Assembly (NCBI GenBank): GCA_051294905.1
Contig: CM119371.1
Coordinates: 932,001 to 996,000 of the forward strand
Direction: 5' to 3'
Length of the DNA: 64,000 nucleotides
Origin: Botryllus schlosseri
Taxonomy: Eukaryota
Part shown: positions 24,418 to 59,225 of the stretch, piece after piece
Layout of the letters: the number at the start of each line of letters is the position of its first letter
How positions within the stretch are numbered: the stretch's first letter is position 1
Position numbers and translations under genes: made by a program
The notes under the pieces: model-generated
Seen by the model: the letters and a program-made list of their open reading frames with translations, nothing else
What the model was told of the DNA's origin: nothing
The model's database searches: none

Positions 24418-24656
24418 ATGAATTCCGAGAGTAGGTTCGCCTCTTATGAAGACTTAAAAAGTGCTTTGGAGAAATACCAGAAAGAAAATTACGTCCAGCT
24501 CTACAAGAGAGATTCACGTACGCTCGATGCAGTAAGAAAGCGAACCACTCGGCGAAATTTCAATGATGCGCTCAAGTATGGCCAGATATCTTTTCACTGC
24601 ATCCACGGCGGCCGTAGATTTCAGAGCTTATCTAAGGGTCTACGACCTAACCAACG
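24418..24656 (+). CDS. MULE first exon, ZSWIM3-N/FAR1-like DNA-binding domain
   Basis: RFASYEDLKSALEKYQKENYVQLYKRDSRT...LKYGQISFHCIHGG...GLRPNQ, followed by donor gtaagt. Confidence 0.7.
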
Positions 24657-24784
24657 GTAAGTAAGCGTTACGTATGATACGGAATTTCCACCGGGTCCAC
24701 AACCACATGAACATGAAGAAGCAATGTTCCCCATGAGCATTTTGTAGTCTTGGTATCGTGAAATTAGGGTTAAATTAGCCTCAG

Positions 24785-29405: not shown

Positions 29406-30597
29406 TAATGCCCAGGCCACTTGGATGTCGATGTTATTTTAGTCGTGTGTTACGAGCGAACCGGATTAGGAAAAGGTAAAAAGGAATTATATTACTAGAA
29501 ACAACAAAAACACGTATGTCACGAAAATTCTGTGTAGGTACATGTCGTAGCCGCGCGAAGAGCGAATTTTCTCAAAAGTAATAAAACATAGGTCAATAAA
29601 ATAATGTTAGTTGCACATATTGTGGTGGTTCGTTCCTGTATACTGCTGGGCTCATTTGGCCAGGACATGATCAATCAGCGCTTGGGCATATCAATATCGA
29701 AGGTTTGCCTGAACATGCGTCTATCACTTAGTGCAAAGTTTCATCGCCAACGATCTTTCCGCGAGCGCAGACGCCCATCAGTCGCACGTCGGACCACACA
29801 TTCTCGCGTAATTGCCGATATAGTTACACTCACTTCCGTAAATTAGGCGGATTTTGGATTTCCATGAGAAGGCAACAATACTAAAAGCAATAAATCACAC
29901 GCAGTGCTGAAAAATATTAAGTCAAATAATCTGATAAATCTGAAATATTCTAGTTTATGGTCATATACAAAGATCTACGAAAATGTGGATGACCCCTGGC
30001 TACGCCAACACGTCGGAACTGATATTTTAGTCCTGAACGCTCCAATGTCCAGTGTGCACACGGATGCAGGGGATGAATTACAAAAAAAAGTTGCCAGAAT
30101 TTGTTTTTAAGGTATAAGACATGGGAAACGGACTGAAAACCTAGACTTTTTGAAAGTCGGTCAATTCTGAACAACCCTAATATACGTATAACTGCTAAAA
30201 TACGTAAGCAACTGCATAGTCTCAGTTTATAGTTTCCAGCCAAAATAGACAATAGAGAAAAGAATTGATAAGATGCAATACATTACCTATTAGAATATGG
30301 ATATGATACAATTCGAACCTGCGCCAATCGTTTTGGACTATATAAACTAGATTCGAATTCAATTTCATTAAAATAAAAGCTTTGATCAGGGTAAGAACAG
30401 AAAACAGAAATAGACATTTCGCTAATAAATTACTTCACTATACCATTTTACGACAACGTAAGCTGTAAGCTTCGATCACCTCGTTTGCTGTCGATTTATT
30501 TTAGCAATTGAGGCTCAGTAAAACGCACAATCATTGAGTGATAGGTCGCTATCACAGATTACACCAGCGTTTTGCGAACAATCCGAACATATGCAAG

Positions 30598-35370: not shown

Positions 35371-35510
35371 ATATCTTCGTACACTACAATAAAGCAGAAT
35401 AATTTGCGATAGATTTATCAAAAGTAAAAATTTTCTACAATAGCTTAGTAGCGCAACATGTTGTCACTCGATTTCTTGTTTTTAATATTGTTGCCTAGGC
35501 TTACCATACG

Positions 35511-37324
35511 ATGAGTCAAGAGAATACAGGCAAGGCCTGGGGAGCGGAAGTCCGTCAATTCGTGCTAGCAGAAGACGAAGAATCTACTCTAAAACAGGAC
35601 TTGGAAAGAACAGCTGCTGAAGCGCTTATACTTGCAAATGAAGATTATAAACCACCAGATATTGAAGACCCTGAGAATCAATGGGAAGGGCTGAAACCTG
35701 AGATTTGGTTACCAATCTTCGAAAAATAGAAGAACGAAATAGGCAGTCTGGAAAAGAATCTATCACGTGATTCAGGTTTACCCTACAAGTTCACGCTTGA
35801 GCTCAAAGACGAGACAGTCGACCCATTCGTAGGAAAGGCGTATACCTTACGAAATGACGTACATACAAGGGGATTGGAAAAAGAACTGGACAGATATCTA
35901 CAATTGGGCGTTATTGAAGTGGGTAACTCTGAATGGAAAACCTCACCCTTTGTAGTGGCTCAAAAACAGAACAACAGACAGAAGGAGGAAGCATTGAAAC
36001 GGCACCTTGAACAAGGATTAACGGGGGAACCGGATCCGCCTATGAGAGTAGTTCAAGATTTCGTACCTCTCAACAACAATACTAAAGCTACAAATGTAGT
36101 ACCACCTCTGATATCTGATTTGATACATAAAGCATCGGGAAGGACGAAGAAAACGCTGATAGATCTCACCAAGGCATATTATCACGTGCAGGTGCCAGAA
36201 CAATATCGCAAATATCTGGGAATTGCAGTACGAAATAGAGAACTACGTTGGAAACGTTTAGCTATGGGCCTCAAAAATGCTGTGGCAATATTCCAGCAAT
36301 CGATGAATGAAGGATTGGTAGAACCAGTAACGCGAGAATACAGAAAGCTTGCAAAAACCCATGGATGGGGAGAAGAAGAGGAAAAAGCGTGCCCTATATT
36401 CGCATACATTGATGATATTCTACTCATAACAAAGACAGATGAACAGCATCTAGTATTACTAGATCTGGTGTTTGCTCAACTTGCTGAACTTCGACTCACC
36501 ATCAGTATCAATAAGTGCTTTGTGGGAAAGAAGAAAATAAATCTACTTGGCGTGTTGCTGGATGAAGATACGGTCAAAGTACAACCTGAAAGGATCAGGG
36601 CCTTGCGTGAAATGCCACCACCCAGGAATATATTCGAACTACGCGGATATATTGGAGCTTTAAGATATTTGGCAGCGCACTTTGAAGATATGGCGATGAT
36701 ACTGGCGTGTTTTGATAGCCAGACAGGATGTGTACCAGCGTCACAAAGCAGGCGAGTACCTGTTAAATGGACACGAAAATTGCTTGAACATTACACGAAA
36801 ATGCGTGATGTTCTACTACGACCGAAAACGCTCTTTCATATACGAATGGGGCTACCAATCTTCGTACAAACAGACGCAGCGTTGGACGGGATGGGTGCAG
36901 TTCTATACCAAACGGAGAACGCAGAGCCCATTCCCACAAACAGATATATCCCGTGGCTTACTACTCAAAGAAATGGAAACCTAATGAAAAAAGTTCATAC
37001 AGTGCGTGTAAAAAAGAAATTTTGGCGGTGGTACGAGCTTTCGAGAAATGGGGTTCTATACTTCTGGGTAGACCCGTATCAATACTTACGGACAAAGGAG
37101 TAATGGGAATATTGAAGAAAGTCACTGAGGGTAACAAACAAGCTTCAGATGACCCGCAAATGATGAGATGGGTAGCTGTGATCAGCGCCTACAATATCAG
37201 AAACGTGGTTCATATTTCTACATCAGAAATATTCACGGCGGATGCACTATCAAGAATGTTTGTAGAAAACACGGCAGTGGAAGAAGGTGACCCACTGGCC
37301 TGGATAGCTATCAAGAAAGGCGGA
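35511..37324 (+). pseudogene. pol: pol: reverse transcriptase and RNase H (Ty3/gypsy- or caulimovirid-like)
   Basis: RT motifs MRVVQDFVPLN, IDLTKAYYHV, LAMGLKNAVAIFQ, AYIDDILL, INKC and NLLG. RNase H motifs QTDAALDGMGAVL, AYYSKK, KEILAV, LTD and ADALSR. In-frame TAG at 35727 and a frameshift near 36950. Confidence 0.93.
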
Positions 37325-37822
37325 ATGACAAAAAATGAGAAGGAAAAGCTTAACAGAAAATTGATTAAACATCTCAGGCATACAGAATGTATGCTACAGA
37401 AGAAGGGTTGGCACCCTATGGCATGTGCTATGAAATATGGCTATGATGATCCGAAGGAATGGATTGAGAATGACAGAATAATGATCTCGGAGCATGGGAT
37501 TGCGGCAAAACAAGGACATACTAAAGGACAGAATCCGCAAATGCAGCAGTGGCTTAACCCGGAAGGGCTAACAACATTGTTTCATGCTACTCGAAAGAAC
37601 CGAGTATCCCCTATTATGGCAGAAGGCATAGCTAAAATGGGAAGACGTTTTGTACATCTATACACGGACGAAAGAGATGCGAAGCAAAAGGGAGAAGTCT
37701 GCATCTGCGTTGACATAGAAAGACTCAAACCGCAATCACTATGGTCCTTGAATGACGCGTCGAAAGTTGTACTATCATCGGACATAATTCCTAATGATTG
37801 TATATCTATTTCAGATGAATAG
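37325..37822 (+). CDS. Tpt1/KptA-like RNA 2'-phosphotransferase domain, in frame with RNase H
   Basis: Motifs in the correct order: KLIKHLRH...GW, NDRI, IAAKQGHT, LFHAT, GIAKMGRRFVHL, ICVD, VVLSSDIIPNDCI. Confidence 0.82.
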   Translation: MTKNEKEKLNRKLIKHLRHTECMLQKKGWHPMACAMKYGYDDPKEWIENDRIMISEHGIAAKQGHTKGQNPQMQQWLNPEGLTTLFHATRKNRVSPIMAEGIAKMGRRFVHLYTDERDAKQKGEVCICVDIERLKPQSLWSLNDASKVVLSSDIIPNDCISISDE

Positions 37823-39732
37823 GAATCTACCATATTACCCTAGTAAGTCGGCTAATGCTGCTATGCATCTGAGACTGAGGGAATATGGAATGATACGACA
37901 TGGATGGAATACGAAACCTACCGCATCAGGAAATAATTACGTGAACCGTCTGGCGCTTATTACTGTGTGGCCTCTACCCAGTAACTCACGGCTAAATCCA
38001 CTACAATTAAGTATAACCAATGAAATGCAAGGAAATGACTGAAGAAAACAAAGGCCGGGGTTTGAAGAAAGCTTGAGTGAAGTTTGGAGAATGTTTCGAT
38101 CCTATGAGATACATCCTAATGTGGATAAGCTATACGCTTACTTCACTGATGGAGAATACCGTAAAGCAGGGGTTCTCAACTTCCCTTGTATCGCGGGCCG
38201 CATTTTAACAGCAAAAGACGCTGCGGGCCGCAAAACATTATTGCCATGTAATTGTGGGCTACTATTAAATTTAGGCTACTGTAGCCTATTTACCAGTCAT
38301 ATACAGGCCGATATATTCCCCTTTAAACCCTTTCAACAGAGAACCGAACTCTCTGCTTCAAACCGGAAGAGAGCAAGTATAAAATTACGGTAACTTTTGC
38401 GTTAGAGAAGCCATTATCACATTGAGCTCTCAGTCATATATAAATTAGTTAGCTTTGTCAAGTTGGTGTTTTTCGCTGGTTCCCCTCCCACGTTGGCCCA
38501 GCCTGCATTTTCTCTATGTTCACTCTGACAAAATGCACCCAGATAATTAGATATGCAGAGTCTGTGGAGTCGGTGAATTCATCCAATGCTAGGATAAAGT
38601 AGTCTACGTGACTACGTGTTTCAGAACATGCGATAAAAGATCGACTGACATTGCTGTAACTCTTTTGGTCATGGTTGAATCAGACAACTGTAGTTTCGAC
38701 ATATGCCAGGTGCTGTTGTAATTGCTGCTAAGTTCCGGAAACATCAAATACTCGCAGAATTTTATTGAAAACACACTTTCTCTAGCAAATTTCTTGGGTT
38801 TAGCGATATTCCCAGCAATTTTGAACGATTTGTCTGCAACGTCGTCGGCAATCTTAAATGCCTCGAAATATGGATTACTGGGCTTGAAACCTAGCTAGCA
38901 ACGTTATTTATAAGATCAGGCGATCTGAATAACTCCAAACGTTATGCCATACGAAAACGGTTCTTCGACAAGTATGATACAACGGTCTTCTATTTATTTC
39001 TGAGAAAACAAATTCATTGTTCCACGCTGAGTCACAAACCCAGTTTTTGCCGTTTTATTGCCCATTCCGTGCTCTTGTTTCTGTTCAAACCATTCGCGGT
39101 GAGTAAAACACTCTTTAAAAAATGTACTACGTATAGCGGGATTGTCGTGAACCAGAGTCCAACCGAATACGGATTCAAAACAATAACAATCTAAACTCGA
39201 GCATATATCAAGAAACCAGAACACATCAAAAATGATTAATTAAACGAAAGAGAGATAAGAGAGCTAAGCAGCTAAATTAATATGTAACAATACCGTGTCA
39301 GTAATAATTGCGTTCATAATGAAAGATGTCGCGGGCCGCAAAATAAACGTCTGCGGGCCGCATGCGGCCCGCGGGCCGCGGGTTGAGAACCCCTGCCGTA
39401 AAGCATTGGACAATGGAGTATTGCCGATGAAACAAAAATATTTGCAGGGATATAAATACAAATTCGGTATACTCACTACTTGTGAGTTGGCGCCTAAAGG
39501 TTGGGAAAAGAGACACAGAATATCTGTTACACTACCTAGTGTACAGAGTAAATCCAAGTACCCTCGTAAGGAGGTCCTGAAAAATTGGAACAATACTGAA
39601 CAATGTCAGCCATTACATCTATGGCAATGGAATGGAAGCAAAAACTGGTTATGGGCGAGCAAACACTTTATACCTAACGAGTTGAGAGATGATAATGTGA
39701 TTTTCGTTGGGACTGCGACATTGATAGACTGA
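37815..39732 (+). pseudogene. ORF3 of the retroelement (~225 aa), possible divergent Tpt1-like paralogue, split by a hAT insertion
   Basis: Its ATG overlaps the pol end (gATGAATAG). One TGA at 38040. The frame rejoins across the 38167-39395 insert as ...FTDGEYRK|ALDNGVLPMKQKY... Confidence 0.65.
38167..39395. mobile_element. Non-autonomous hAT element inserted in ORF3
   Basis: TIRs CAGGGGTTCTCAAC / GTTGAGAACCCCTG, with an 8-bp TSD CCGTAAAG at 38159-38166 and 39396-39403. Confidence 0.93.
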
Positions 39733-39775
39733 TATTTGTGCAACTGAACATTTAGCACTGAATACAATACTAACA

Positions 39776-41040
39776 ATGGTATACGCTTTACAGATAATAG
39801 TTACAATACCTATGTCGGAAGTGAACATATCGAGTGTGACTGAAACAACCACGGTGGAAAAGAACAACATATTTGAAATATACATACCACCTGTGAACTC
39901 GGAATGGGCCACGTTCGCATTGCTTCTGTTGTCTATTGCTGGATTATCATGGTCATTTATTGCGTTCTGCTGGACGCGGAGGATCGAAAACGAATCAGAC
40001 GGATGAAAAACAACCTATAATCCCGAGCTCGGATCTACAATTGTTGGCATAGAAGACAAGGTACACTGGTTACAGACTGAAGTCTATGATGAATCGTTAC
40101 ACGGCAATAACTCCACTCATAAATGGATACCTATAGCCGGATGGGAGGAAGTCAAGTACAACATGACATCAGAATGCGACGAAAAAGATGACACTCTTTC
40201 GAATTTTCCAACTAGTACATATGGAATAGTAAGATCGAGATCTGTGAATTATGTGGAAAAATACTTCCATAATACAACAATATTCTCGTCCCATGACGAA
40301 TATATCTCCGAATGCAGAACAAACAATGCGACAACATACCGGAAAAGATCTGAGATATTGCCTGAATTGCATCCTCTAGTGTTTGATCGGAGCGTGATTT
40401 ATGTTCGAGACAATAAACCATACCAATGGCATCATTGGAATTGGGATCCGGTATCGAATAATGCGAGGTCATGGAATGAAGAAGATATTACAGTCCTCAA
40501 TTTGGTGGAATTCTTCACGGCATATCGCATACAAGTTTCATTGCTATTCCAAGAATTTGCCGAAGTTCATGCTAATTGTACGACTAAGAAAGAAGCTAGA
40601 GAAGCTAGTGCAATTTAAAGAGGGGAGAATTAGGTGGCAACTCAGCCGAATAAGTTGGTCATATTCAATCAATTATTCCTATGACAGTAGGCTAAAGTAC
40701 CTTTGTGGCAGGGATTTTTCGACAAATGGCATCACCATGCGCTGAAAATAAGGACAGAATGGACCATAGATTGTTCGTTCTATGGCAAAGAATCGTCCCG
40801 AATACGACCCGAGACACTAAAGGCCGATCCGTATCTAGTCATGACCTGGGGAAAAACAGATAAGCGATTTAGTAAAACGAGCCCTAAAAGAATGCATGAA
40901 GAAATGAAATGCATTACTGGAAGTGCGGCAATACCAAGCGGTGCGCATCTCGCATTCCCAATGTTGTCTCCAGCGGAGACAATTGAAGCGTAGCCATTTT
41001 GTCTCCTTGGCTACCTAGTCGTCGGAAATTTTACCTGGGC
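39776..41040 (+). pseudogene. env: env-like glycoprotein, 5' part (signal/anchor and surface subunit)
   Basis: ORFs 39776, 40163 and 40703 share one frame, and 40007-40162 is open after TGA 40004. Hydrophobic segment WATFALLLLSIAGLSWSFIAFCW, several NxS/T sequons, Trp/Cys-rich. Confidence 0.65.
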
Positions 41041-41639
41041 GCTTATGGGTTTACGCATTGTACCTTCATAAAACGGACTAATAATCAGGTACTGTTAGTT
41101 ATCAGCCGTTTATCTTTTGATATTGCGTTTATACTAAACCATTTATTCCTATAACTTACAGATTATAACATCGGGAATTCTGGGAATAGAATAAGAAGTA
41201 CGATAGAAACAGGATATAACTCAGATGTCAGAACAGCAGTTAGCTATCGAAGTAAGATTCACAACTCTGAACTAATATCACTGATCACTGGGTGATCCTT
41301 TTAAATTTTTCATCCATATGCATTTTCACATCCATGTACACTGTACAGGTGATTCCAAGATAATGTCGAGGGGGGTGGGGATCAGTCGGTCAGGTGTGCT
41401 GTGCTTATAATATAAGTTATAAGCTTATGGCTGTACAAAACGTTTGAAGGCAGTATCGAGTTTGTGAGGAGTTATAGCGAGGATGAGGAAATACAGTGTA
41501 AGCGGCGATATCCACTTACTTTTTATCTGTGAGATTTTAGCATTTATAAGGGAGACAATTTTTCATCTAACATTTTGCTTGATGCCAGCTTGACACTTTG
41601 AAAAATTTTCTATTTACAGATACATGAACAGATGATTGT

Positions 41640-41810
41640 ATTATGCATTATGCATTGCAGCTGAAGGAATGCTTAAGAACACCTGATTATTACTATGGTA
41701 TGTGTTCAGTTTCCCTTGGTAGCAATGATGCTCTAAAGAACGAATGGATTGGAGACATCAAGAGAGAAAATTGGAAGCCCTCAAAATATTAAAGGATCTG
41801 CTCCAAAGAA
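41640..41810 (+). pseudogene. THAP-domain fragment in a non-retroviral insert (~41050-43870) that interrupts env
   Basis: Hand translation gives LKNEWIGDIKRENWKPSKY*RICSK, the THAP W...R..WxP....ICS signature. Insert ends are not resolved. Confidence 0.6.
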
Positions 41811-42148
41811 TGGAAAGAGCTCTGAAACAATGGAATGAGCTAGAAAGATCCGCGGAATAGAGACTGACACTGAAAGAAACTGTGACATCGAGCAGACGAG
41901 CACTAGGCCAAGGTGGATGCCAGTTTAAGAAACTGCAACTGGTCGTTCGGCATGCTCCTATCTGTGTGTGTCTTGTTCAGATGAAAATATAATCTGACGA
42001 TTTTTGATTTATTTTCACCAGCGGCCTGACTTTTCCGTGCTTAGTAGCAATTTGGTCGAAAAGCTGTCACAGACCCAATGAAATCGTCTCGAGACCCTCA
42101 CTTAACTAGGGGGTGGAATTTCTACAGAAATCATTTATGTATAATTAT

Positions 42149-42979
42149 TAGGGCGGTTTTTTTTGACATGTCAAAATTGTAGCGTTAGGTCAAAATTTGT
42201 CAAAATTTTTCATCAAGTCAAAATTTTTTCGACATCTGCATTTCGTTTGTATCGTAGATTCTGCACTGTCGGTGTACATATCATTTGATATTTTAAAGCT
42301 TGTAGCCTATTTTATAGGACTACCGTTGTAAACGGCTAATTGTCTGCTCATTGTGAACCGTAAACGGTCAAATAAAACAAATAGGTAGACATGGTGTTAT
42401 GGTCAACATACCGCAATATCCTAACTGAAGAAAGACTTCTTGGACATTGCATCATTCTTACATTAGGAAGCGCACGATGAAAAATTGTGATGTAGACAAC
42501 ATTGTCAGAATAAAGCAACACGGTGTGTCACCAGCAGTGTACGCACAACTTGAGTGTTGTCAGCCAACAACTGCTGCTGTTAAACGTCCTTGGCAAGCTT
42601 CTTAGTAAGGACATGCACTTTCTACCCAAGAATGTAGGAAAGTATCTCTCGTTGTACTACAACATCTTTCAATTATTTCTACCATAATACATATTGTAAC
42701 CACTGGAATTCTTCATAGGGCCAGATTTCGTTAAAATATTGTTTTTTTCATGTAAAAAGTTGCCTGTTTCTAAGCCAAAAACGTTTTTTTTCAGGCCAAA
42801 CTGCGTCGTTAGGACAGTCAGTTCCAGCCGGAAATGAAGATTGAGTGGTACAATTTTAACATTATGTGGGAAAACACCTAATTTGCATATGTTAGGCCAA
42901 TATTTGGTCAAGATTCAGTTCAAAATTTTGATTTTTTAGGTCAAAATTTCCCTTTTTTTTAGGTAAAAAAAACGCCCCA
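42149..42979. mobile_element. MITE
   Basis: Ends TAGGGCGGTTTTTTT / AAAAAAACGCCCCA, with an 8-bp TSD ATAATTAT at 42141-42148 and 42980-42987. Confidence 0.75.
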
Positions 42980-44016
42980 ATAATTATACATACATACATC
43001 TAGCTAAAAATCGCCAAAAGAAAATACTATTGTAAAGAACTATTTCCATATATTTTAACAGTTCTACCATAAAAATCTTAAAACCTCGTATACCCTAACC
43101 TAAAGCCAGATTTCACCCAAAAGATTTCAATGTTGACAATCGGCAACTATATCAACTCCACCAGGAATTATTTCAGTAGCATCAATGTCAACATGTTTCT
43201 TTCTTGGCTAGTTCTGTTTTAAATGCAAGTGTTCAGCATTCCTGACACACAAGCAATTACATGAATTAGTTTTGTTGTTCTGTTTCTGATATTTTGGTTT
43301 TACAGGGTACCGTATTCAATGACAAGCCTATTTGGTCATCTCAATCTGCAAGAAACTAATTATCCTTCTTTATTTCGGTGGCACAAAAGACTGGCATATT
43401 TCCGGCAACGTTGAAAACTATTTATGAATTGCCCAGTTGAACCATACTCTTTCTATGTCCATATGTGGATCGCTGAAATAAAAATACCGTATATCACAAT
43501 GATCTCGTTGATATATTTCTGGTGCATAGAACCGTATAGTCATAGTACAATTACAGTTTAATAACCGTGGCAAAATCATGGACAGGGCAGAAGCAGTTTA
43601 GGTTTAGATGACTTCTTTGAGACATCGAGAGCAAACTTGATGTGTTCCTGCACTCGCAAGCAAACATCACCGAAGGCGATTAGCATCAGTGCTACTCAAG
43701 ACTGCTTCACGTTGAGTTTGATGTAGTCAGAAGCTAATCGTTGAAATATTCGCGTCGGAATGTCGTTGCAATGCAGTATCCCTTGAAGTTACACACGAGT
43801 CTTCGCCGTTTTAGATCCATCTATGGATACTGAAGTCGCAAATGCAATCCATGGCGTCATTCAAGGCTGACATACCTATTAGAAAGGGTATACTATAGTT
43901 CATTAATATGGTCTGTGTTAGTTTTGTGATAAAACATACTTATTCCAGACGAAAACCCCTCGAAAAGCGTAAAACACGGAGAATCCCAGTAGTTCACCAT
44001 AAGCACCAGTGCGCAA

Positions 44017-46573
44017 CAGTGATGAGCGGATGTTGGATTTTGAGAATCCGAATCCGTCCGACAGTTTTGGTGTCTGCGGAACTATCCATCCGACTCCGGA
44101 TAATCTCATCCAACTATCCGAATTTATCCACAAATCTCTTACAAGAATCCGAAAAATCCTTATCGAATAATGATATCGCAGAATATCAATTGTAAAGCTG
44201 AGCTTAGTTACAGTTCTGCACTAGAAGATCACGAATTGTATCTATGGAATGAACGAAAATTGGAATTTTAATTATAGGAAAGTTAACGCAAAGAAACAAA
44301 GCTACTAATTTGAAGTAAGTGTGCGAATGAAAGTGGAATCTCGATCAAAAGCAAATGAAAAATGACAAAGATTATTAGGCCATGGCCATATGTAACAATC
44401 AGGCATTTAACCATATTACCAAATATATATCAAGAAGTAATAGTAGCAAGTTGTGACCATGGAATTTTACAATCGGGAGATGGTCAATATTGGATGCGGA
44501 TAAGCCACATTTTACCGACAAGTGCTGGAAGGCGTGAAGGCCTGTTTAGAAGCAACTTGCTGATGCTTATAATGCCTTTGGTCAATCAGTTCAAAGCTTC
44601 GAGCATAACGCTTATAGTCGAGTCACACGAAATGTCAATAATAGCACCATCCTGAATGTCCCTCAATCTGTCCAAATTTCCTCTCCAGTAGCTGGTCAGT
44701 AGTTGTCTTGCCAACTTGTTTATTGGAAGAGAAGAAACTCATCTTCAACTGTGCTGCATCCTTGGCCTTTCGGATATGGTTTGTAAGGTTCATTGTACCA
44801 CTTGAAAACGTGTGGTGTTTACTTGAACATAGTAATTGTAGCATTCAGCAGAGCCAGTGTCCCATAAATCCGGATGCAATCCCTCCACACTTCACTATTG
44901 CTGTGCTATCTCTCAAGACGTCGACTTTCTTCAATCCATTATAATGGAGAAACGAAACTCCGACAGTACGGAATCATAGCTCAAATTGACACTCAGACGA
45001 GGAGTTTGACAACATTCAAGGTCTTCAAATAATGCAATACACTAGTTGATAGAGCTCCACTCAAGAGACATGACGCATCACTAACGCACTGATCGACACT
45101 CCTTGGGATTGACTTTCAAACTGTTTGCATGGTCTCTCGTTGAAATCATATCGAAAAGCACCATAATCACGACAAAGTCTTTTTTCACAATTCTTCAACT
45201 GAAATCAAATTTACTTAAACAGACCATTGCCTGACAAAAAAAAACTAACAGCTTTTTCTTGTATGGCTCAGTGGTTCTGGATGATTGATTCCGTCAATCA
45301 TATTGGAGAAAATATAGCAGCTGAAGGAAGGGAAGAGTAAGCAGGAGAGTTGAGTAGGTTTGCTTTCGTTGTAACGGTATATAGGAATTATGGATTTTAT
45401 AGCCTTGTTATATGTTATTAGTTTGCCTTAATATGACATGCATGTATCTTGAATGATTTCAAACAGGCTGGTAGGCTACTGTACCGTCAAGGCATCATTA
45501 TATTAATTATCATATATTTTATCTGTGTATATATCTTCTTACATAATGTTCTATATAATTTTCTGACTACAGAAAGTTACTTGTACATGTTTGTATGCAT
45601 ATTCTTATTTGAGTGACCGGGCTGCAAGTGTGTGAATAGCTGTTAACTCGACGTGCTAAGCTGACGAGAAGTCCAAGTCCACACGGGGAATACCTTCTCA
45701 CGGAACGGAGTTATTACATTGTTAAACGTCATCAGGATATATTCCGTTATGATCATGAACTGCTGGAAGACTCATGGTAGCTAAAGATTGTGCCGTAGCA
45801 CAAGCACCGCGGTATAGTGTTGATCGAAAGGGTATCATACAACTACTGTGGCAGCATGAAAATCATTCATGCTACAAGTACGCAAAGAGGGATTTGACTT
45901 ACCGGTATATTAATCTACAGAAGACTGCCACAACAACAACTTTGAAGATTCTAGAAATTGCATGCCCTATTGTGACATTCATCAGCAATGGGCTCAAAAA
46001 CTACATGTGAAGGCGGGAAGCAAACGCAGTTCTGTGACTGATGTTGAAACTATACCTTCAATTTTGCGAACTTCAGACACTGCTCTGCGAGCATACCGTA
46101 CTGATGATGACCATGTCAGGCGAGCTCATGTCCAATCATACCATCGTTTATCAGTTCACATATTATAAATCGTTAGATTGGCAAGTATGGTATGCTTGAT
46201 GTGTTTTAGCTAATAAATCTGATAACATCGCTGATCTTATAGTATTGTCTACTCTTGAATGGTTAGAATGGTAGTGGTAATAGTTTATCTATATTATTTT
46301 GGACTCTTGACAAACATTTTTAGACTGCTACCTGTCATATCGTAAGGTGTCAGCTGTCTGTTTTTGGTTATTGAATTGATGACTTTTTTTATAGGCCTGT
46401 AATCAAATCTCACATCTGGTTACAACTATCCGGAAATATCCTATCAAAAGTTACAACTATCCGACAATATCCGAAAAAATATTTGTGATAATATCCGAGT
46501 CCTATCCGACTGCCACAAAATCGTCTAATATCCGGTCCGAATGCTATCCGAGTCCGTCCGATGCTCATCACTG
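44017..46573 (-). mobile_element. Deleted hAT element (BED-finger remnant) inserted in env
   Basis: TIRs CAGTGATGAGC / GCTCATCACTG, with an 8-bp TSD GTGCGCAA at 44009-44016 and 46574-46581. SSGTMNLTNHI remnant at ~44770-44840 on the minus strand. Related to 49561-51867 in the opposite orientation. Confidence 0.88.
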
Positions 46574-46581
46574 GTGCGCAA

Positions 46582-48510
46582 GTAGGTAGCCAGAGCTGTT
46601 TTTCAATTTTCTCCGCCGTCACGGTAAGTTGCGCACTCCAGTGTTTATATAGCTCAGTGGGCAATACACATACAACGGACCGGTGCTGAATTTATATTTG
46701 AGGATTTGGCAAGGATAAAGTTGGCGTTGATGGAAGAATACGTTGACAATATCTGGGCAACCCGAATATATCCAGTATAAAAAAGGATGACATCAATAGT
46801 ACATTGACAGAAACGCGACAATACTATAAGACATGAGCAGTAAAGACGGTCAAAAGATTTAAACCGTTCGCTACGTTTCACATGCTACATAGATGGGGAT
46901 CTGTTGTGTACACGGGAGTCCATGGAAGAGTCTGGAATAATCGACTAAGGTTGAAAGTAACTAATGGAATACCTAACAAGACCATATCCGGAACTCCTTT
47001 ATGTCGCTTGGGACTACCGAGAAGAGGAATTAATGAAGGCAACGCATCTATTATGGATACATATTGGTCGGACTACGAAACCGATTGGCCGCCAAGATCC
47101 GGAGGTTACGATGGAGTTTTAGAAGAAGAGTTAATACTGTTGCAAACGGAAAACACCAAGAAAGCACGACAATCTAAGTGCGACCATCCTTTTGTTCCCC
47201 TAATTACAAAACTTGAGTACTGGAATGATACACGTTACTATGTGAATCTGCAAGAAAGATATCCTGTGCAACCTTTTTGTTTCAAGACAATGACAGGAAA
47301 ATCGGACTCTACGAACAACCAGACAAGGTCAAAGAGGCAAGTACTAGCGGTGGGTTCCCGATTTATACGATTGGCAACTACAGGACAATGGGGTTCCACT
47401 AAAATGGAATCGGCCGCCAATGCACATGTGGCAAGCCTGGAAAGAGAAATCAGAGACAGGTTTCGTAATGATGCAAAGAATCTAGCAAAAACTGCGGTTG
47501 GGCTTCGGCGTTTACACAAAATTACGCCTGAACTAATGAAAGTGTTAACCAGGGTACAAGCAATGTTACTTGAAAAAGGTCGGCTAGCAGACAAAGATGA
47601 CAGAACTCATTCGACCTTAGTGCAGATGGGAAATGGAGATGGTTCCATTACATTGAAGAACCTAGTTTCCGAAATACACATGTTGGAAAGAATGGCGCGA
47701 GTTCAACTAGCAGCGGATGATATGGTTAGCAGGGAACTGCTGCGAGTGAACATACATGTGCCCAGTGATGTCAAATTTGAATTGATTATCATAGAGGGTA
47801 TAATACAACTGAAAACACTTGCAAGAAGAATGAAAATACCTGTGGAAAATGTCAATATTGAAGAATTCGAAAAGCCGCTAGAATCATTTGTCAACGACAC
47901 CAATAGCAATCTGACGATTAGAAAAATCGAGAACAGTGCTATACACCGAGAATTGAAAAAGATCAAGAATGCAAGTATGACTATGAAACATGAAGAAAAA
48001 ACATGGTATGGTCGAAGATAGGGAATTGAACGAGTGCCTGACGCGTCAGGTAAAATTGCTAAAGGTCTCGGAAAGACAATTGTCAAAACTGCTAAAGGTG
48101 TCGGAACTGGGTTGGAAACAGTTGTTAATGAAGGCGAGAAGATAGTAAATGGCGTTGGTAAAACAGTCGGATGAATATTCGGAAGCGTATTCGGATCCCT
48201 GTTAAAGCCATTATTGATTCCAGTAGCCATTGGTATAGCAGTGCTAATTGTGATATGTATCCTATTACAATGCCACCCGCAGTGCCATGAAAACAAACAG
48301 AGATTACATCCGTCATTGAGGTGGGGAAGTAATAAAAAAGAACGTATGTGGTCAATCAAGAATAGCAATTTGATTCACGAAGGCAAAAAGATACTACCCG
48401 AAGCCGTTAAAATGGCGACAATAGCCCTGCCGGCATATCAAGCCAAACCAACGAAGGGCGTAAAGTGGGCCGACGATGTTGAATGTGAGAAAGAAAATAG
48501 TGGGATGTAA
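46582..48510 (+). pseudogene. env: env-like glycoprotein, 3' part (furin site, fusion-peptide/heptad region, membrane-proximal region, TM and tail)
   Basis: RSKR at 47326-47337, then QVLAVGSRFIRLATTG and a heptad-like stretch. The Gly-rich GLGKTIVKTAKGVGTGLETVV...IFGSVFGSLLKPLL precedes TM IPVAIGIAVLIVICILL. ORFs 46882 and 48214 are in one frame, separated by TAG 48019 and TGA 48172. Confidence 0.8.
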
Positions 48511-48833
48511 AACAGATTGTAGCATACAATAGTTAAAATGGAATCCATAACGACGACTCATGTAAAACAAATTTGTGTGACATTGAAATGAATCTGAAAC
48601 AACACTACATGATATTCATTGGTAATCAAGGAAGGATATTAGCGCCGATTTTGTCGTATTTCACATGCCATGGTACATGAGATCTATGGATATTCCAGGA
48701 AGGTGTCTGAACAGATATCGCCTGATGATGCAATAAGCACATGCTACCCATTCGGTAACAGAATCTGGTACTGACAAGAGGTATGGCCAGAGCAGTTGGA
48801 AAGAACGAGTCCCCATCAATCATGAAGTAGATT

Positions 48834-49493
48834 TTGACGAGTAATGCATCACCAAAGGGAGTCATAACGCCTGCGAGACCAGCAAATAGTCGGCCGTCGA
48901 CAAGTGCAGAAGAAGATCAGGCTATCGAAACTGTGGACAAATCGCAATTATCGCAGAGAGCTCGAAAAAGTTACAATCGAATGCTTCGAGAAAAGTCTAA
49001 TTCATCGATCAAAATGTCCAAAGAAACGAAGGCGGCGTTCGAAAGATATAAGCGTATGAAGATACGAAATGATCCTGAACATTGGCAGGATGTCAGAATG
49101 TGTGAAATTTTAATGCATATGACGGAGCCTAATTACCAACAACTTTTCAAAAAAACGCGAATGATGAGACACAATGAACAAAAGGCATTGAAGGAGGAAA
49201 CGAAGCAAGAATTGCCCAAAGGAGTTATGCTTGCTAGCAAAGAAATACTGGGAGGAAATAACATCCCGAAAGGTGCTTTGCAATCTGACGAACGAATTCT
49301 AACGCCTGGAAATGCTATTTCCATTGGTAAAAAGACGAAAAGAGAGCTGCGAGCAGCATTGAAGAGAACACGAGTCTGTGTTTTAGCCGCAACGCACTGC
49401 GATTTGTGCCACGAGGAAGACGAAAACTGCATATTACATCAGACTATAGACTGCAATAGCACAAGGATTAAAGGCCGAAAGACAAAGATTTAA
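48834..49493 (+). CDS. Accessory ORF of the retroelement: basic, helical, with a Cys/His cluster (HCDLCH...C..H...C)
   Basis: 219 open codons, co-oriented and downstream of env. No recognised family, and no integrase HHCC or DDE motifs. Confidence 0.5.
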   Translation: MTSNASPKGVITPARPANSRPSTSAEEDQAIETVDKSQLSQRARKSYNRMLREKSNSSIKMSKETKAAFERYKRMKIRNDPEHWQDVRMCEILMHMTEPNYQQLFKKTRMMRHNEQKALKEETKQELPKGVMLASKEILGGNNIPKGALQSDERILTPGNAISIGKKTKRELRAALKRTRVCVLAATHCDLCHEEDENCILHQTIDCNSTRIKGRKTKI

Positions 49494-49560
49494 ACTAATA
49501 TGTTCAATTAGTTTCCCCGGCTTTTAGGGTGATTAGCGTGCGCCAAACGCTGCTATGAAC

Positions 49561-52399: not shown

Positions 52400-55300
52400 T
52401 TTATGCTGTTTTGTGGTGTATGTCAATTGATGCATTTGTTGGTAATTTATTGTGTAGCGATCTGAATTTTGAAATTGAGCTGCATACACGTTAATTGTGT
52501 TGTGTCGCTTTCCAGACGATATGCCTAAGCGAAGTAGGGGGAGATAAATTAGAGAAAATGAACAATTTTGATTCTTGTTGGAAAATATTGCCGTTCTAAA
52601 TAAATTAATGGATAATTTGGATGGCAGTAAGAAAATCAAACATGATTCGGAAAGAAGAATAAAGAATTTTGTACCAATTACATAAGACGGGTATATTCGC
52701 TATCAAATGTTGAGACTTAAATGGAAAACGTTCTGGAATTGTTAAAAACAACCAGAATGTTTTGCGGGGGCAATGAGAACGTTTGGGCGGAAATGAAATT
52801 GATATTTATGTATGTTTGGTTAAGAAGGGAGAAAAAGTCAAAGCAATAAAAGATTGATCGAAAAATACTGATACAAAGTAATTCATGGCGAGAATTCGTG
52901 AATAAATAATAAATAAATAAACGCCGGCGAATAGTCTGGAGAGTCGAGGCAGCACAATAGCATGTGTGCAGACGTTGATGAGACATGAATTAACATTTGT
53001 GATGTGTAATGAGTTAATGATACATGAATTAACATTTGTGATGAGTAATGAAACGTGAATTAATATTTTGGGATATGAATTGATAATTGTGACGGTTGAT
53101 TTGTCAGTATAGTAACTGTACAATGTGTGTATTTGACACGATAACATGATAATGTATTACGATACTAAACAGGAAATACTTGCCTTGATGTATCCGAAAC
53201 ATAAATGGGGTCATACATACCAGTGTAACATGTGCCTTTGTATAGAACGAATTCATGAATTTAATGTGGCAATGCAGAGCGATTTGCTTCTGACACAATC
53301 ATAAGTAATGTGCCTACAATATGCAGTAATTAGTAAGCATACGACCCGGTTGGAATACACCTTATGCTGAAGTATGTTTATTGTTGGAGTAGTCATGTTA
53401 TGATTGTGAAATAAAGTGTCTATGATATATGGTAATAAGCATGTAACCCGGTTGGAATATACCTTTTGCTAAACACCGTATATTATTGATGTAATTGTTG
53501 AAGTAATTGTACTGTAGTTGCGAAGTAAAGTGCCTATTAGGGTTGTCCAAAATTTGGAAAATCTTACAAATCCTCCGTTGTAATGTCTTATTCTATAGAT
53601 TATTGATAAAAAACGACACTGAGCCAGAAAGAAGCTCACAGGAAGGCCGTTAAGATTTCGTGCAAAGCGTTTGAAAGTAGCTGCCGTAGAATGGGCGTGC
53701 CACCGACCATAGAACGGCGAGAAGACTAGCAATCACGAAACCACGGCTCTGGATTGGCTAATCGGCTATGCTTCAATGACCACGACAGCAGCAGCTTGCT
53801 GTGTAGGTGATCAAGGAGTCTGCTACCGGCGGCGATTCTGAAAGCCCATTGTATGTAGGTTGACAGATAATGATTTAGGATTGATTCAGGGTATGTTGAG
53901 GTACGAAATACATGATGAACAAACAACAGCTGCTTCACGAAAACGTCTAAAGCATGACCGCTTTATTATGAAGGGAACCGCCGTAGCCTGCATGCCTTGT
54001 TTTCAACGAGAGAAAGCATAGGCGCTTATGCAAGTAGCGACGGATTCCTAGTTTCAGAAAGATCTCCTTATTGAATACAAAGATAAAGCTTAACAATGAC
54101 ACTACAACTTGTGTGATCTTATTGGGCTCAGGTTGTAGTACATGGTTGAAGTTTTGAAAGCTCTAAGGATCGGCTGAATCAGCGGGTTATGCTTGGCACT
54201 TGTCAGATGCTTGCATCAAAATGTATTCACTTGCAAGTGTTGTCAAAGTCCTTGATGATGACGCAGAAAAGAGGTGTAAAAGTAAGCACATACTATGCTG
54301 GACATGATATGGCAAAGTCCTTAATGTCGCGCAGAAAAGGGGTGTAAAAGTAGGCACAGACAATGCTGCATAGTGCATAGCACCCAGCATAGTTTGTACA
54401 TCATATCAAGCATAGTCTGTGCTTGCATTTAGACATCGTTTCTGCGGCATCATTAGGGACTTTGAAAACACTTACAAGTGAATTCAATTTGCTGTAAACA
54501 TCTGACAAGTGCCAAGCCTAAGCGACGTTTGATTCAGCCGATCCCTAGAGCATTGAAAACTTCAATTATGTACTGCAACCTGAGCCCAATAAGATCACAC
54601 AAATTGTAGTGTCATTGTTAAGGTTTATCTTTGTATTCAATAATGATATAGCCTTTCTGAAAGTAGGAGTCCGTCGCTATTTGCATAAGCGCCCATGCTT
54701 TCCCTCGTTGAAAACAAGGCATATAGGCTACAGCGGTTTCCTTCACAATAAAGCGGTCACGCTTTAGACGTTTTTGTGAAGCAGCTGTTGTTGTTCATCA
54801 TGTATTTCGTACCTCAGCATACCCTGAATCAATCCTAAATCAATATCTGTCAACCTACATACAATGCGCTTTCAGAATCGCCGCCGGTAGCAGACTCCTT
54901 GATCACCTACACAGCAAGCTGCTGCTGTCGTGGTCATTGAAGCATAGCCGATTAGCCAATCAAGAGCCGTGGTTTCGTGATTGCTAGTCTTCTCGCCGTT
55001 CTATGGTCGGTGGCACGCCCATTCTTCGGCAGCTACTTTCAAACGCTTTGCACGAAATCATAACAGTCTTCCTGTGAGCTTCTTTCAGGCTCAGTGTCGT
55101 TTTTTATCACTAATCTATAGAATAAGACATTACAACGGAGGATTCGTAAGATTTTCCAAATTATGGACAACCCTAGTGCCTATGATATGCGGTAATGAGC
55201 ATGGAACCCGGTTGGAACATACCTTTTGCTTAATGCCGTATATTATTGATGTAATTGTGAAGTAAAGAGTCTATGATATGCAGTAATAAGCATGCGACCC

Positions 55301-55940
55301 GGTTGGAACATACCTTTTGCTGAATTCTGTATATTATTGATGTAATTGTGAAGTAAAGAGTCTATGATATGCAATAATAAGCATGCGACCCGGTTGGAAC
55401 ACACCTTATGCTGAAGCCTGTGTATTGTTGATGTAATTGTGTATTAATTGTTGAGTAATTGTGCTGTAATTGAGACGTAAACGCTGATTGGAGTATTTGG
55501 TTGTATTAAGGTGGATTGGCTTGATTGGATACTGATTAGCTACTAATTAGTAATAAATTCTGGTTGAAAGCTGTATGAGTTACGTCTGAAAAGTAACCAT
55601 ACGACGGAATTAAAGCTGTGTGTGAGCTACGCCTGAAAGGTAGCTACACACGACGGAAGAATTGGACACTACTTGTCATCACTACTTGTCGTATACTGGC
55701 ATCCCTGCCTGACAATTTACAAGTGATACTGCATACTACAAAGGAACTGGACACTATATTATCACAAATTGTTGCACACTGGCATCTTTGCCTGACAATT
55801 TACAAGTGATACGAAAGATATAGGTGACCCGTATGGAGGGCATTGTGTCTTCACAATCTATACGCTGTCATAGCTATATAAACAGGTGTAAACCCTGTGT
55901 AATTGGAGTTCCCACCGAGATAGAGAGAGATATAGAGAGA
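52400..55940 (+). promoter_or_regulatory. Long non-coding LTR-like/intergenic region of the retroelement with tandem repeats
   Basis: AATAAA cluster at ~52900-52921. Five ~90-nt units with core ACCCGGTTGGAA(C/T)A(C/T)ACCTT at ~53340, 53445, 55205, 55297 and 55387. Paired direct repeats at 55570-55660 and 55695-55812. Confidence 0.55.
53538..55175. mobile_element. Foldback hAT-type element with ~670-bp inverted arms
   Basis: Ends TAGGGTTGTCCA / TGGACAACCCTA, with an 8-bp TSD GTGCCTAT at 53530-53537 and 55176-55183. Mirror ORFs at 53469(-) and 54981(+). Confidence 0.93.
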
Positions 55941-55942
55941 AC

Positions 55943-58803: not shown

Positions 58804-58804
58804 G

Positions 58805-59225
58805 GGGTTATATACTGAGGATTTGTCCTCTTTTTTGACTTTTTTGAAAGTGTCCTCGGAGGACGACCTTTTGTCTCCTTTTTTGAGATTTTGTCCTCTT
58901 TTTGAAAATTTAGGCAGATTTAGAGCAAATTGCGAGTGATATGCCGCATATTAGCACAGAAGTGAAGCTCCGGCGGGTATTTCGGAGTGAAAAACGGTGA
59001 TTTTAGCTCTGAGCGAAAAGATGACATTTTTTTAAGTCATCCACCTGCCAATGTAGAGTAAAAAACGTTATTTTGAGCTCTGAGCAGAAGTGATGACCTT
59101 TTTTTAGTCAGCCGATCACAAAGTGGGAAAAATTAACCGGTTTTTCAGAATTTTACTCCGGTTTTGCAAGTTGCAAATTTCTGAAAAAGTGTCCTCTTTT
59201 TTTATTTCCAAAATAGGGTAAGCCT
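58805..59225. mobile_element. MITE (GTCCTCTTTTT-rich) truncating gag
   Basis: Similar to ~8490-8745 (TTTGTCCTCTTTTTTGAAAATTT...GCAAGT...GTCCTCTTTT). The last ~45 aa of ORF 57350 are read from it. Confidence 0.65.

Follow-up and report, generated by a model that had tools for sequence, protein, structure and literature searches.

A Tpt1/KptA-type domain at the end of Pol in a Ty3/gypsy-like clade of Botryllus schlosseri

Why would the Pol protein of a retroelement end in a domain of the Tpt1/KptA family of RNA 2'-phosphotransferases, at the place where integrase is expected? The question is raised by a stretch of 64,000 nucleotides from Botryllus schlosseri (GCA_051294905.1, contig CM119371.1, positions 932,001 to 996,000), here called the window, to which all coordinates below refer. 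A first reading of these letters (the original prediction) had placed a Tpt1/KptA domain directly after the ADALSR motif of RNase H in the same open frame, with all four of its catalytic residues apparently present, and had added that no fusion of reverse transcriptase (RT), RNase H and Tpt1 was known to it from an animal Ty3/gypsy element or retrovirus.

Identity of the domain after RNase H

In the window ORF 36809..37822 (+), RNase H ends in ADALSR and is followed by a linker and then, in the same frame, by the Tpt1 motifs quoted in the original prediction. PTS_2-RNA (PF01885) is matched at 38.4 bits (E 1.8e-9), against a curated cut-off of 26 bits, over profile positions 73-175 of 177, and phmmer with the window protein against the PDB returns 10 Tpt1 sequences (E 3.3e-5 to 6.4e-3). 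In Pol ORFs from seven divergent lineages of the genome, PF01885 is above cut-off every time (30.0-44.5 bits), and in four of them the match covers profile positions 4-6 to 177. A family profile made from these seven lineages aligns over its full length with the Tpt1 proteins of the PDB (E 4e-15 to 2e-13). The AF2 family model of the domain (pLDDT 79.6) contains the complete Tpt1 fold with its two lobes, a winged-helix one for RNA and an ADP-ribosyltransferase-like one for NAD+, and when it is compared with the PDB by Foldseek, ranks 1-22 are all Tpt1/KptA (for the best, E ~1e-10 and TM 0.71/0.78), most of them over about 175-185 aligned columns. The segment after RNase H is a genuine Tpt1/KptA-type domain, as the original prediction had it. 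The parts of the element in the window are the following.

35510..38168 (+), first segment of the defective copy: Pol from mid-protein onwards, with RT, RNase H and Tpt1, and part of the next ORF (blastn)
35730..37103 (+), RT open frame, continuing through the first half of RNase H; RVT_1 at about 36096-36554 (E 1.2e-19), with a YIDD motif
36935..37192 (+), latter half of RNase H, in frame with Tpt1; Pfam RT_RNaseH, E 3e-15, residues 43-128 of ORF 36809..37822
36940..36960 (+), approximate place of a frameshift within RNase H by which Pol is divided between two frames, by comparison with the uninterrupted Pol on contig C3
37256..37339 (+), linker from RNase H (ending in ADALSR) to Tpt1, predicted to be disordered (model residues 1-28, pLDDT <50)
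37340..37822 (+), Tpt1/KptA domain (coding part 37340-37819) and stop codon; Pfam, phmmer, family profile, AF2/Foldseek and residue columns
37790..39729 (+), homologue of the 235-aa ORF downstream of Pol, interrupted by a stop and a 1.2-kb insertion (38169-39395)
39877..48494 (+), env-like glycoprotein ORF, interrupted by a 5.7-kb insertion (40935-46655); its intact counterpart has 962 aa
48770..53339 (+), further element ORFs: a 244-aa ORF (48831..49493), a 2.3-kb insertion (49562-51864) and a segment at 51865-53339
55180..58939 (+), repeat 'T' (~365 nt, 55479-55843), then a gag-like ORF (55892..58939) broken into three frame pieces

What the window holds is a dead copy from an env-bearing lineage: it is 5'-truncated, frameshifted and interrupted by four insertions. 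An intact copy on contig C3 encodes a Pol of 1195 aa with RVP, G-patch, RVT_1, RT_RNaseH and PTS_2-RNA; the window's similarity to intact copies begins at 35510, and protease and G-patch are missing from its Pol. In blastn against the C3 copy, identity is 94.8% over 2663 nt in the first segment, and similarity to that copy stops at 58817. The original prediction gave 36953 as the start, a position that lies just past the RNase H frameshift. The env-like ORF has no Pfam match; an Atlas lead to class III fusion glycoproteins (gB, rhabdovirus G; 0.90, 184 of 256 features) is to be read as a lead only. Repeat 'T' has many solo copies elsewhere in the genome. The zinc knuckle of the window lineage's gag falls just below the Pfam cut-off, and this gag is 28-33% identical to that of the giant sister lineage described below.

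The catalytic Arg-His-Arg-Arg tetrad was defined for the Tpt1 of Runella (PMC6097658, in part), and residue equivalences were taken from an alignment of the seven-lineage profile to that enzyme (7kw8). They fall in the window as follows.

37376-37381 (+), tetrad Arg-His, aligned to Runella Arg16/His17
37475-37477 (+), second Arg of the tetrad, aligned to Arg64
37583-37591 (+), His-Ala-Thr, the counterpart of HGT, with the His and Thr NAD contacts kept
37643-37645 (+), last Arg of the tetrad, aligned to Arg119

All four tetrad residues are therefore present where they had been claimed. The idea that the third of them is the Arg of 'IRAxQGHS', which is Ala here, was discarded, as the alignment identifies Arg64 with the Arg of K-x-R-F, and this is present. 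The His and Thr of HGT contact the adenosine of NAD+ (excerpt of PMC6333775); together with the tetrad they make six residues that are invariant in all seven genome lineages, and 10 of 14 outside sequences also have the full set. Of the other four, two are truncated fragments in which every key column that they cover is kept, and two, P0138 and P0274, have substitutions at key residues, P0274 lacking three of the six. The Gly of HGT is A, M, V, I or L across the seven lineages, and most of them have C, N or E in place of the Lys of K-x-R, which is found only in the intact copy from the window lineage. This Lys is dispensable in the Runella and yeast enzymes (PMC6333775, in part) and is required for step 2 on DNA in Tpt1 of T. 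kodakarensis (excerpt of PMC12678800). By the same alignment, the loop whose basic residues cage the NAD+ phosphates in Runella (Arg137/His138) is about five residues shorter; the giant lineage has Lys/Arg there, the window lineage Lys/Gln. The element Tpt1s have an extra invariant His/Cys/His-Pro pattern.

A clade of Pol proteins without retroviral integrase

Across the genome there are 104 matches to the Tpt1 domain, half of them (52) within open frames of at least 1000 aa, and all seven lineages encode protease, RT, RNase H and Tpt1; RVT_1, RT_RNaseH and RT_RNaseH_2 are found by Pfam in each of the seven Pol ORFs. The protease motif D-[TS]-G-[SA] is invariant across lineages (RVP in the window lineage scores 24.0 bits, with a cut-off of 20.7), zf-CCHC in gag is at or just under the Pfam cut-off, and ORF2 (pol) overlaps ORF1 (gag) in the -1 frame relative to it. 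At least eight public proteins have the RT-RNase H-Tpt1 architecture. The dN/dS of the Tpt1 domain is 0.16 (L027 versus L025) and 0.05 (L025 versus L031), to be compared with 0.03-0.10 for RT and 0.14-0.24 for protease, and the domain is under purifying selection. It is thus a C-terminal, inherited part of Pol in an old, many-copy Ty3/gypsy-like clade without retroviral integrase, and not an insertion specific to one copy. The broken state of the window copy might have suggested an artefact, such as an exon of host TRPT1 or a chance fusion beside a transposon. This reading is refuted by the long open frames, the seven lineages and the outside proteins with the same fusion, and its probability is negligible; the family profile also gives far higher scores to Tpt1s of archaea and bacteria than to that of yeast, and human and mouse are not reached at E 1 or below.

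A word-indexed search using the Tpt1 tail alone had no match, and IMG/VR and the JGI metagenomes returned solely ordinary Tpt1 genes (22-41% identity, 7 and 79 loci). When four RNA runs were aligned on L027, they gave 90-294 mostly partial reads on both strands, with a depth of 0-3 over gag-pol.

Integrase is absent where it would be expected. Retroviral integrase (rve, PF00665) is matched by Pfam in none of the seven Pol ORFs, and tblastn with 11 integrase-bearing Ty3/gypsy Pols against the window, a 40-kb sister locus and 27 kb of the giant lineage gives matches to RT-RNase H only. Long terminal repeats (LTRs) were likewise not found inside the 10-kb loci of four lineages. In how copies insert, the window lineage and the giant lineage look different. 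Five copies of the window lineage, found with a Tpt1 query, have ragged and differing ends. Their breakpoints all fall in a region of ~3.5 kb around the gag/pol junction, within a unit of 15.3 kb, and one copy has inverted duplications that are 100% identical. These insertions seem end-joining-like.

In the giant sister lineage the same gag-pol occupies the 3' end of a unit 37.7 kb long. This abundant lineage had been taken for a 6.9-kb two-ORF element without LTRs, a description that was dropped when the query copy proved to be an internal-deletion derivative. The unit has imperfect 23-bp inverted ends (matching at 16 of 23 positions), and seven of eight copies are flanked by perfect 8-bp target duplications. 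The similarity between the two ends of the unit is otherwise gapped and weak, and no LTRs were found in this lineage. It encodes two IS1595/Merlin-type DDE transposases (DDE_Tnp_IS1595, E 6.4e-18 and 3.6e-10), an IAP, an E2 and LRR genes, and nine ORFs with significant above-cut-off Pfam matches are all on one strand, gag being counted only by a borderline zinc knuckle. Judged by its sequence, with transposase, terminal inverted repeats and 8-bp duplication, the giant lineage is of the Merlin/IS1595 kind. Its end motifs and a PBS-like 17-mer were not found in the window, and neither an IS1595 transposase nor such inverted ends were found in the window or in its sister locus. It is worth noting that the transposases and inverted ends of this lineage, the defects of the window copy and the env-like gene had not been seen in the original prediction.

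What the domain may act on

Since Tpt1 is tied into one polyprotein with RT and RNase H, only a few substrates come into question. In the original prediction, healing or capping of ends, circularisation of the cDNA and concealment of ends from innate sensors were offered as possible roles. Retroviral-type RNase H leaves 5'-phosphates. The reading favoured here, held tentatively and at somewhat less than even confidence, is that the Tpt1 domain is catalytically active, is packaged along with Pol, in the way of an integrase, and modifies terminal phosphates on the replication intermediates of the element. The RNase H next to it would leave 5'-phosphate ends on cDNA and on RNA primers; Tpt1 with NAD+ would ADP-ribosylate these terminal phosphates or take them off; and the ends that integrase otherwise holds would thus be marked or protected until insertion, by the transposase in the giant lineage and by host end-joining in the window lineage. 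The domain is a candidate active enzyme because the six key residues are kept in all seven lineages and dN/dS is low, and there is a chemical precedent in the T. kodakarensis enzyme, which forms 5'-p-ADPR-DNA and can move a 5'-phosphate onto NAD+ (PMC12678800, in part). Several observations count against end modification: most lineages lack the Lys of K-x-R, another residue stands for the Gly of HGT, and the loop at the NAD phosphates is shortened. The Arg64 equivalent is invariant and yet would not be needed for simple one-step capping, which counts against capping of ends. A capped 5' end would also hinder the host ligation that the window lineage seems to use.

Removal of 2'-phosphates is a close rival. 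Here Tpt1 would have its canonical activity and remove a 2'-phosphate from RNA that the RT must copy or extend, making a template or primer usable; the phosphate could be internal, at the junction left by a yeast/plant-type ligase (acting at a 5'-phosphate), or terminal, after the opening of a cyclic phosphate. All Tpt1s surveyed remove internal 2'-phosphates and only a subset caps 5' ends (PMC6182162, in part), so the prior favours this rival. The whole tetrad is invariant, including Arg64, which in Runella is selectively needed in step 2 of the reaction (PMC6097658, same excerpt), and a subset of Tpt1s also strips terminal 2' and 3' phosphates (excerpt of PMC6573784). Against this, animals chiefly use a ligase that leaves no 2'-phosphate (PMC6333775, in part). 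There is also no sign of ligated or circular RNA, and the idea of a ribozyme or circular RNA was abandoned when Rfam gave no ribozyme or other family, neither in the window at gathering thresholds nor in six loci at E 1 or below. Further, a conserved 15-nt stretch upstream of gag resembles an ordinary tRNA primer-binding site, with a presumed match to a tRNA. On balance canonical activity is possible and somewhat doubtful, and end modification is preferred.

In two other readings the domain would do neither. It may be a host-directed accessory enzyme that acts on host RNA or on NAD+/ADP-ribose signalling and not on nucleic acids of the element; it might, for example, mend tRNAs after cleavage by a defence nuclease, or weaken a defence that depends on NAD. 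The giant lineage does carry other host-manipulating genes (the IAP and E2), and the Runella Tpt1 lies within an RNA-repair gene cluster (as stated in part of PMC6097658), but in these elements Tpt1 is fused to Pol, not a free accessory ORF like IAP and E2, and it is present in every lineage, including those without accessory genes, so this is unlikely. The domain might also be a non-catalytic remnant whose fold is kept for nucleic-acid binding or assembly, with no chemistry. The lost Lys of K-x-R, the replaced Gly of HGT and the shorter NAD-phosphate loop speak for this, as does the loss of three key residues in P0274, but the six residues are invariant in the genome lineages although aligned Tpt1 tails (alignment A2) are down to 33% identity to the first sequence, and a dN/dS of this size also speaks against it; we consider it improbable.

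If end modification is combined with the observations on insertion, the elements could form a new class of reverse-transcribing element without integrase or LTRs, in which a Pol-borne Tpt1 marks the element's own cDNA or RNA with NAD-derived ADP-ribose at the terminal phosphates, the mark serving as an end cap, a flag that attracts host end-joining or even a primer, and in one branch of which an IS1595/Merlin DDE transposase inserts the whole 37.7-kb genome. This is a speculative proposal that is rather less probable than not. If true, the 37.7-kb unit would be the largest retro-type genome known, and Tpt1 homologues of animals and bacteria would gain their first defined biological substrate beyond tRNA splicing; the role of Tpt1 where no 2'-phosphate splice junctions are made is described as an open question (PMC6182162 and PMC6333775, both in part).

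Relation to known elements

The literature search found no published description of an RT-RNase H-Tpt1 fusion. With cellular Tpt1/KptA/TRPT1 (PF01885) the element domain shares the fold, the tetrad, the His/Thr NAD contacts and a length of ~180 residues, and it differs in being fused to RT-RNase H in a polyprotein, in having mostly lost the K-x-R Lys, in reading H-[AMVIL]-T for HGT, in one shorter NAD loop and in the His/Cys/His-Pro pattern. With Ty3/gypsy elements (Metaviridae) the clade shares the CCHC-like knuckle of gag, a DTG protease, a YIDD RT, a gypsy-type RNase H and the -1 frame of pol, and the window lineage has an env-like ORF, as do env-carrying errantivirus-like elements (excerpt of PMC13524379). 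It differs in that no integrase was found, in the LTRs not found in the giant lineage and in the Tpt1 at the C-terminus of Pol; the nearest integrase-bearing Pols are ~27% identical, and scores fall from 455 to 118 bits. RT-RNase H without integrase is also known from DIRS/Ngaro, which have a tyrosine recombinase, and from pararetroviruses (Caulimoviridae, Hepadnaviridae; PMC11673190). The ragged, clustered breakpoints and inverted duplications of the window lineage may be likened to pararetroviral linear-DNA insertions, whereas the present clade has gag, protease and env like those of LTR elements and a Tpt1 that is peculiar to it, and neither a tyrosine recombinase nor a terminal-protein domain was found in it. 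The recently recognised Kuafuorterviruses/Troyka are likewise a deep animal reverse-transcribing lineage, but they have LTRs, integrase and an [IVL]ADD motif in RT (PMC11673190), not YIDD, and were rejected as a match; one supplementary file of that paper makes no mention of PTS_2-RNA.

The giant lineage in turn resembles Merlin/IS1595 transposons and virus-transposon fusions such as Teratorn (PMC10175614, in part) in its DDE_Tnp_IS1595 genes, short inverted ends, 8-bp duplications and large composite make-up, and differs from them in what it carries, a retrovirus-like gag-pol that is under purifying selection, and in having its nine Pfam-matched ORFs on one strand. The clade would thus have two routes past integrase, ragged end-joining-like insertion in the window lineage and a recruited DDE transposase with inverted ends in the giant one, and the latter, with its IAP, E2 and LRR genes, blurs the boundary between retroelement, DNA transposon and virus. 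There is also a consequence for annotation: such Pols are likely filed as plain gypsy, and the Tpt1 part could pass for a host gene.

A Tpt1 domain behind RNase H

In the window, the frame 36809..37822 (+) leads from the end of RNase H (...FTADALSR) through a linker of about 28 residues into the motif series of Tpt1. In Pfam, this frame matches PTS_2-RNA (PF01885) with 38.4 bits against a cut-off of 26 (E 1.8e-9) and RT_RNaseH with E 3e-15; the overlapping frame 35730..37103 matches RVT_1 (E 1.2e-19). When the last 203 residues were compared to the PDB with phmmer, ten Tpt1 sequences were matched (E 3.3e-5 to 6.4e-3), and just two non-Tpt1 chains were found, both with E > 0.3. The Tpt1 domain is genuine, far beyond chance expectation, and the original prediction of an in-frame Tpt1/KptA domain at the end of Pol is supported overall.

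A profile of seven tails from this genome finds the solved Tpt1 proteins of Pyrococcus horikoshii (E 4e-15), Runella slithyformis (6.6e-15) and Thermococcus kodakarensis (∼2e-13), with alignments over nearly their full length. The invariant Arg-His, Arg and Arg of the family correspond in the alignment with the Runella protein to Arg16/His17, Arg64 and Arg119, a tetrad where alanine mutants are lethal according to two studies (PMC6097658; PMC6333775). Aligning IAAKQGHT with IRARYGHS would suggest that the third tetrad arginine is missing; this was rejected, as Arg64 is the equivalent of the arginine in K-x-R-F, which is present and is the R175 originally proposed. All four tetrad positions are thus occupied, as predicted. 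An AlphaFold2 model based on the seven-sequence alignment has a mean pLDDT of 79.6, with values < 50 solely in the 28-residue linker, and in the Foldseek comparison to the PDB that had been suggested as a check, ranks 1–22 are all Tpt1/KptA (best E 8.6e-11, TM 0.71/0.78).

In a joint alignment, six key residues (the tetrad plus the invariant His and Thr of the HGT motif) are retained in all seven lineages from this genome and in 10 of 14 sequences from outside it. Two further outside sequences are fragments cut at the N-terminus, in which the remaining key residues are present; P0138 has Gln in place of the first Arg, and three of the six are gone from P0274. In most lineages, C, N or E takes the place of the ancillary Lys of K-x-R, the Gly of HGT is substituted, and the NAD-phosphate arginine loop is shortened compared to canonical Tpt1. 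For the Tpt1 domain, dN/dS is 0.16 (locus L027 vs L025) and 0.05 (L025 vs L031), next to 0.03–0.10 for RT and 0.14–0.24 for the protease, deeper pairs being mostly saturated at synonymous sites.

The Pol family within and outside the genome

A six-frame search of the same genome (495 Mb, 219 contigs) with the 203 Tpt1-end residues led to 104 matches. Five of these, including the window, are 93–100% identical and the others 28–40%; half of the matches (52) lie in open frames of at least 1000 aa. Seven divergent lineages were compared, and their long ORFs all contain RVT_1, both RNase H models and PTS_2-RNA (30.0–44.5 bits), with the Tpt1 match spanning essentially the entire Pfam profile in four. 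A protease D-[TS]-G-[SA] motif, YIDD in RT and 26 columns of the Tpt1 part are invariant. The upstream (gag) ORFs are 800–1150 aa long, have a CCHC knuckle at or just below the Pfam cut-off, and overlap Pol in the -1 frame. With this distribution, the Tpt1 segment is not an insertion specific to one copy.

The integrase domain PF00665 is absent by Pfam from every Pol of the seven lineages. A tblastn search with 11 integrase-bearing Ty3/gypsy Pols against seven gag-pol loci, the entire window, the sister locus of 40 kb and 27 kb from the giant lineage described below matched RT-RNase H only; Tpt1 is found where integrase was expected. We consider the identity, integrity and conservation of Tpt1, its place in Pol and the lack of integrase to be established.

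At least 10 loci in this genome (e.g. C7:23759026, C13:15715629, C3:18168239) have open frames of ∼160–165 aa whose similarity is confined to the C-terminal portion of the Tpt1 tail (within residues 41–200 at most, 30–38% identity). These may be a separate stand-alone gene family or element.

Among public proteins, a word-indexed search found the RT-RH-Tpt1 architecture in three of 101 matches (P0004–P0006; 699, 460 and 455 bits), the next best being an ordinary integrase-bearing Pol (118 bits, 27% identity). When the full set of 1.84 billion representatives was scanned in HMMER with the Tpt1 profile, 1423 matches were obtained, seven of them with E <= 1e-30. In Pfam searches of the long or fragmentary top matches, RT or RNase H is combined with PTS_2-RNA in P0136, P0141, P0142 and P0145 (above cut-off for PTS_2-RNA in P0136 and P0142 only), and P0274 has RT and RNase H with a tail that matches only the family Tpt1 profile. 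Altogether, at least 8 cluster representatives have the RT-RNase H-Tpt1 architecture, all from ENA records with contigs of up to 1.47 Mb; in scans of IMG/VR and JGI metagenomes, the matches were ordinary Tpt1 genes only. In P0153 (2056 aa), 13 separate stretches match Tpt1-tail profile positions 72–118, with no Pfam PTS_2-RNA match.

Two lineages of elements

The window copy is a defective member of a lineage with an env-like gene. By blastn, five segments of it align with the intact copy found on contig C3:

35510-38168, segment 1
39396-40934, segment 2
46656-49561, segment 3
51865-53339, segment 4
55180-58817, segment 5

The segments are separated by three inserts (1.2, 5.7 and 2.3 kb) and by a stretch of 1.8 kb (53340-55179). 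The window Pol lacks its first ∼420 residues (protease and G-patch), RNase H has a frameshift, and the downstream ORFs are broken. Within the 1.8-kb stretch, a near-perfect palindromic insert (53538-55175; outer arms of 385 nt, 97% complementary, with nested arms) occupies the expected site of the 200-aa and 151-aa ORFs.

The intact Pol has 1195 aa (RVP, G-patch, RT, RNase H, Tpt1) and is followed by a 235-aa ORF, a 962-aa ORF, three more ORFs (244, 200 and 151 aa), a repeat of ∼365 nt that has numerous solo copies, and gag. In two copies, gag runs straight into the beginning of Pol, so that the unit measures 15.3 kb when read in circular order. The 962-aa ORF (window 39877-48494; L023 1916-4801 (-)) has an atlas score of 0.90 to the fusion proteins gB (herpesvirus) and G (rhabdovirus), a lead towards a class III fusion glycoprotein. 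Five copies, all ascertained with the Tpt1 query, have ten different end points within ∼3.5 kb around the gag/pol junction, which may point to linear or opened-circle DNA inserted by host end-joining. Both ends of the C3 copy (C3:28660500-28680825, L022–L024) are 100%-identical inverted gag duplications (arms of 2754 and 1648 bp), suggesting that a fold-back rearrangement took place on insertion or later, or that the assembly is at fault here. Direct repeats ∼28 kb apart flank the window copy (31478-31966 and 59362-60763, 82–91% identical); as the C3 copy is without them, they probably belong to a dispersed repeat that has no relation to the element.

The sister (giant) lineage was considered as a 6.9-kb element with two ORFs, but this was rejected, since that is the 3' end of a far larger collinear unit. 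Walking upstream on C3, copies stay collinear for ∼31 kb and reach a 5' boundary common to at least 30 places; one copy (C3:29412695-29450352; loci L050, L049, L048, L047, L045, L036) measures 37,658 bp, and L027 is a further locus of this lineage. Perfect 8-bp target duplications are found in 7 of 8 copies, and the two ends, with one of them inverted, agree at 16 of 23 positions. The copy on which the 6.9-kb reading was based is a derivative of 14.7 kb with an internal deletion, and has a target duplication of its own. The genes, all on a single strand, are:

two DDE_Tnp_IS1595 transposases (E 3.6e-10 and 6.4e-18)
an LRR protein (E 5.4e-52)
an IAP (three BIR domains, one RING)
a ubiquitin-conjugating E2 (E 1.9e-47)
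small ORFs paralogous to those of the window lineage
gag, then the PR-RT-RH-Tpt1 Pol, after the other genes

A 1138-aa ORF near the 5' part (L049 322-3738) has an atlas lead to gB and rhabdovirus G (score 0.81) and a weak BLASTP match to the 962-aa ORF of the window lineage (E 0.002). Just upstream of gag, a 15-nt stretch starting with TGG is identical in two lineages with differing flanks, and looks like a tRNA primer-binding site:

L027 959-975, TGG 15-mer
L035 ∼779 (reverse complement), TGG 15-mer

A tract rich in purines, with GGGG as its last bases, is located ∼110–140 nt before the 3' end.

Possible roles and literature

Tpt1 is presumably catalytically active and would be packaged together with Pol. 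RNase H cleavage products carry 5'-phosphate ends, and the adjoining RNase H would leave such ends on cDNA and primers. Our tentative reading is that Tpt1 acts on terminal phosphates of the element's nucleic acids, and that in the place of integrase it would mark cDNA ends; an end-marking enzyme replacing integrase would make sense because the cDNA ends are unprotected without integrase. Some Tpt1 enzymes add an ADP-ribose cap to 5'-phosphate ends (PMC6182162), and T. kodakarensis Tpt1 makes 5'-p-ADPR-DNA, from which the phosphate can pass on to NAD+ (PMC12678800). The canonical activity, where a 2'-phosphate is taken off template or primer RNA, is within reach of every tested Tpt1, and is also favoured by the step-2 arginine, which is invariant in the family. 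The element sequences give no hint of circular or ligated RNA (no Rfam match in the window or six loci), and RNA reads are few. We regard this role as a close competitor of the first, and as somewhat less likely.

Full-text searches, with subscription journals and Repbase Reports mostly outside their scope, found no description of an RT-RNase H-Tpt1 Pol, in line with the original statement that no such fusion was known in an animal Ty3/gypsy element or retrovirus, nor of a retro-type gag-pol within an IS1595/Merlin-type unit. By search terms, neither architecture appears in studies on accessory domains of retrotransposons (PMC6338049), giant transposons (PMC6431247), env-carrying Ty3/gypsy elements (PMC13524379) or horizontal transfer between viruses of animals (bioRxiv 2024.03.25.586562), or in the main text and one supplement of the Kuafuortervirus study (PMC11673190). 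The element class belongs with LTR-like retroelements as a new variant, and is possibly more than that.

Elsewhere in the window, pieces of an NLR-type gene (NACHT with E 1e-16, NOD2 winged helix, LRR) are found at 19412-21942 (-), the best named relatives being NLRC5-like proteins of two ascidians, Styela clava and Clavelina lepadiformis (26–37% identity). By this lead, the host would probably be a tunicate. At 22249-29410, inverted arms of ∼600 nt (22249-22872 and 28794-29410, 94–98% complementary) surround a block of C-rich tandem repeats at 24.8–25.7 kb with a GC skew of -0.42 and telomere-like CCCTAA-type units.
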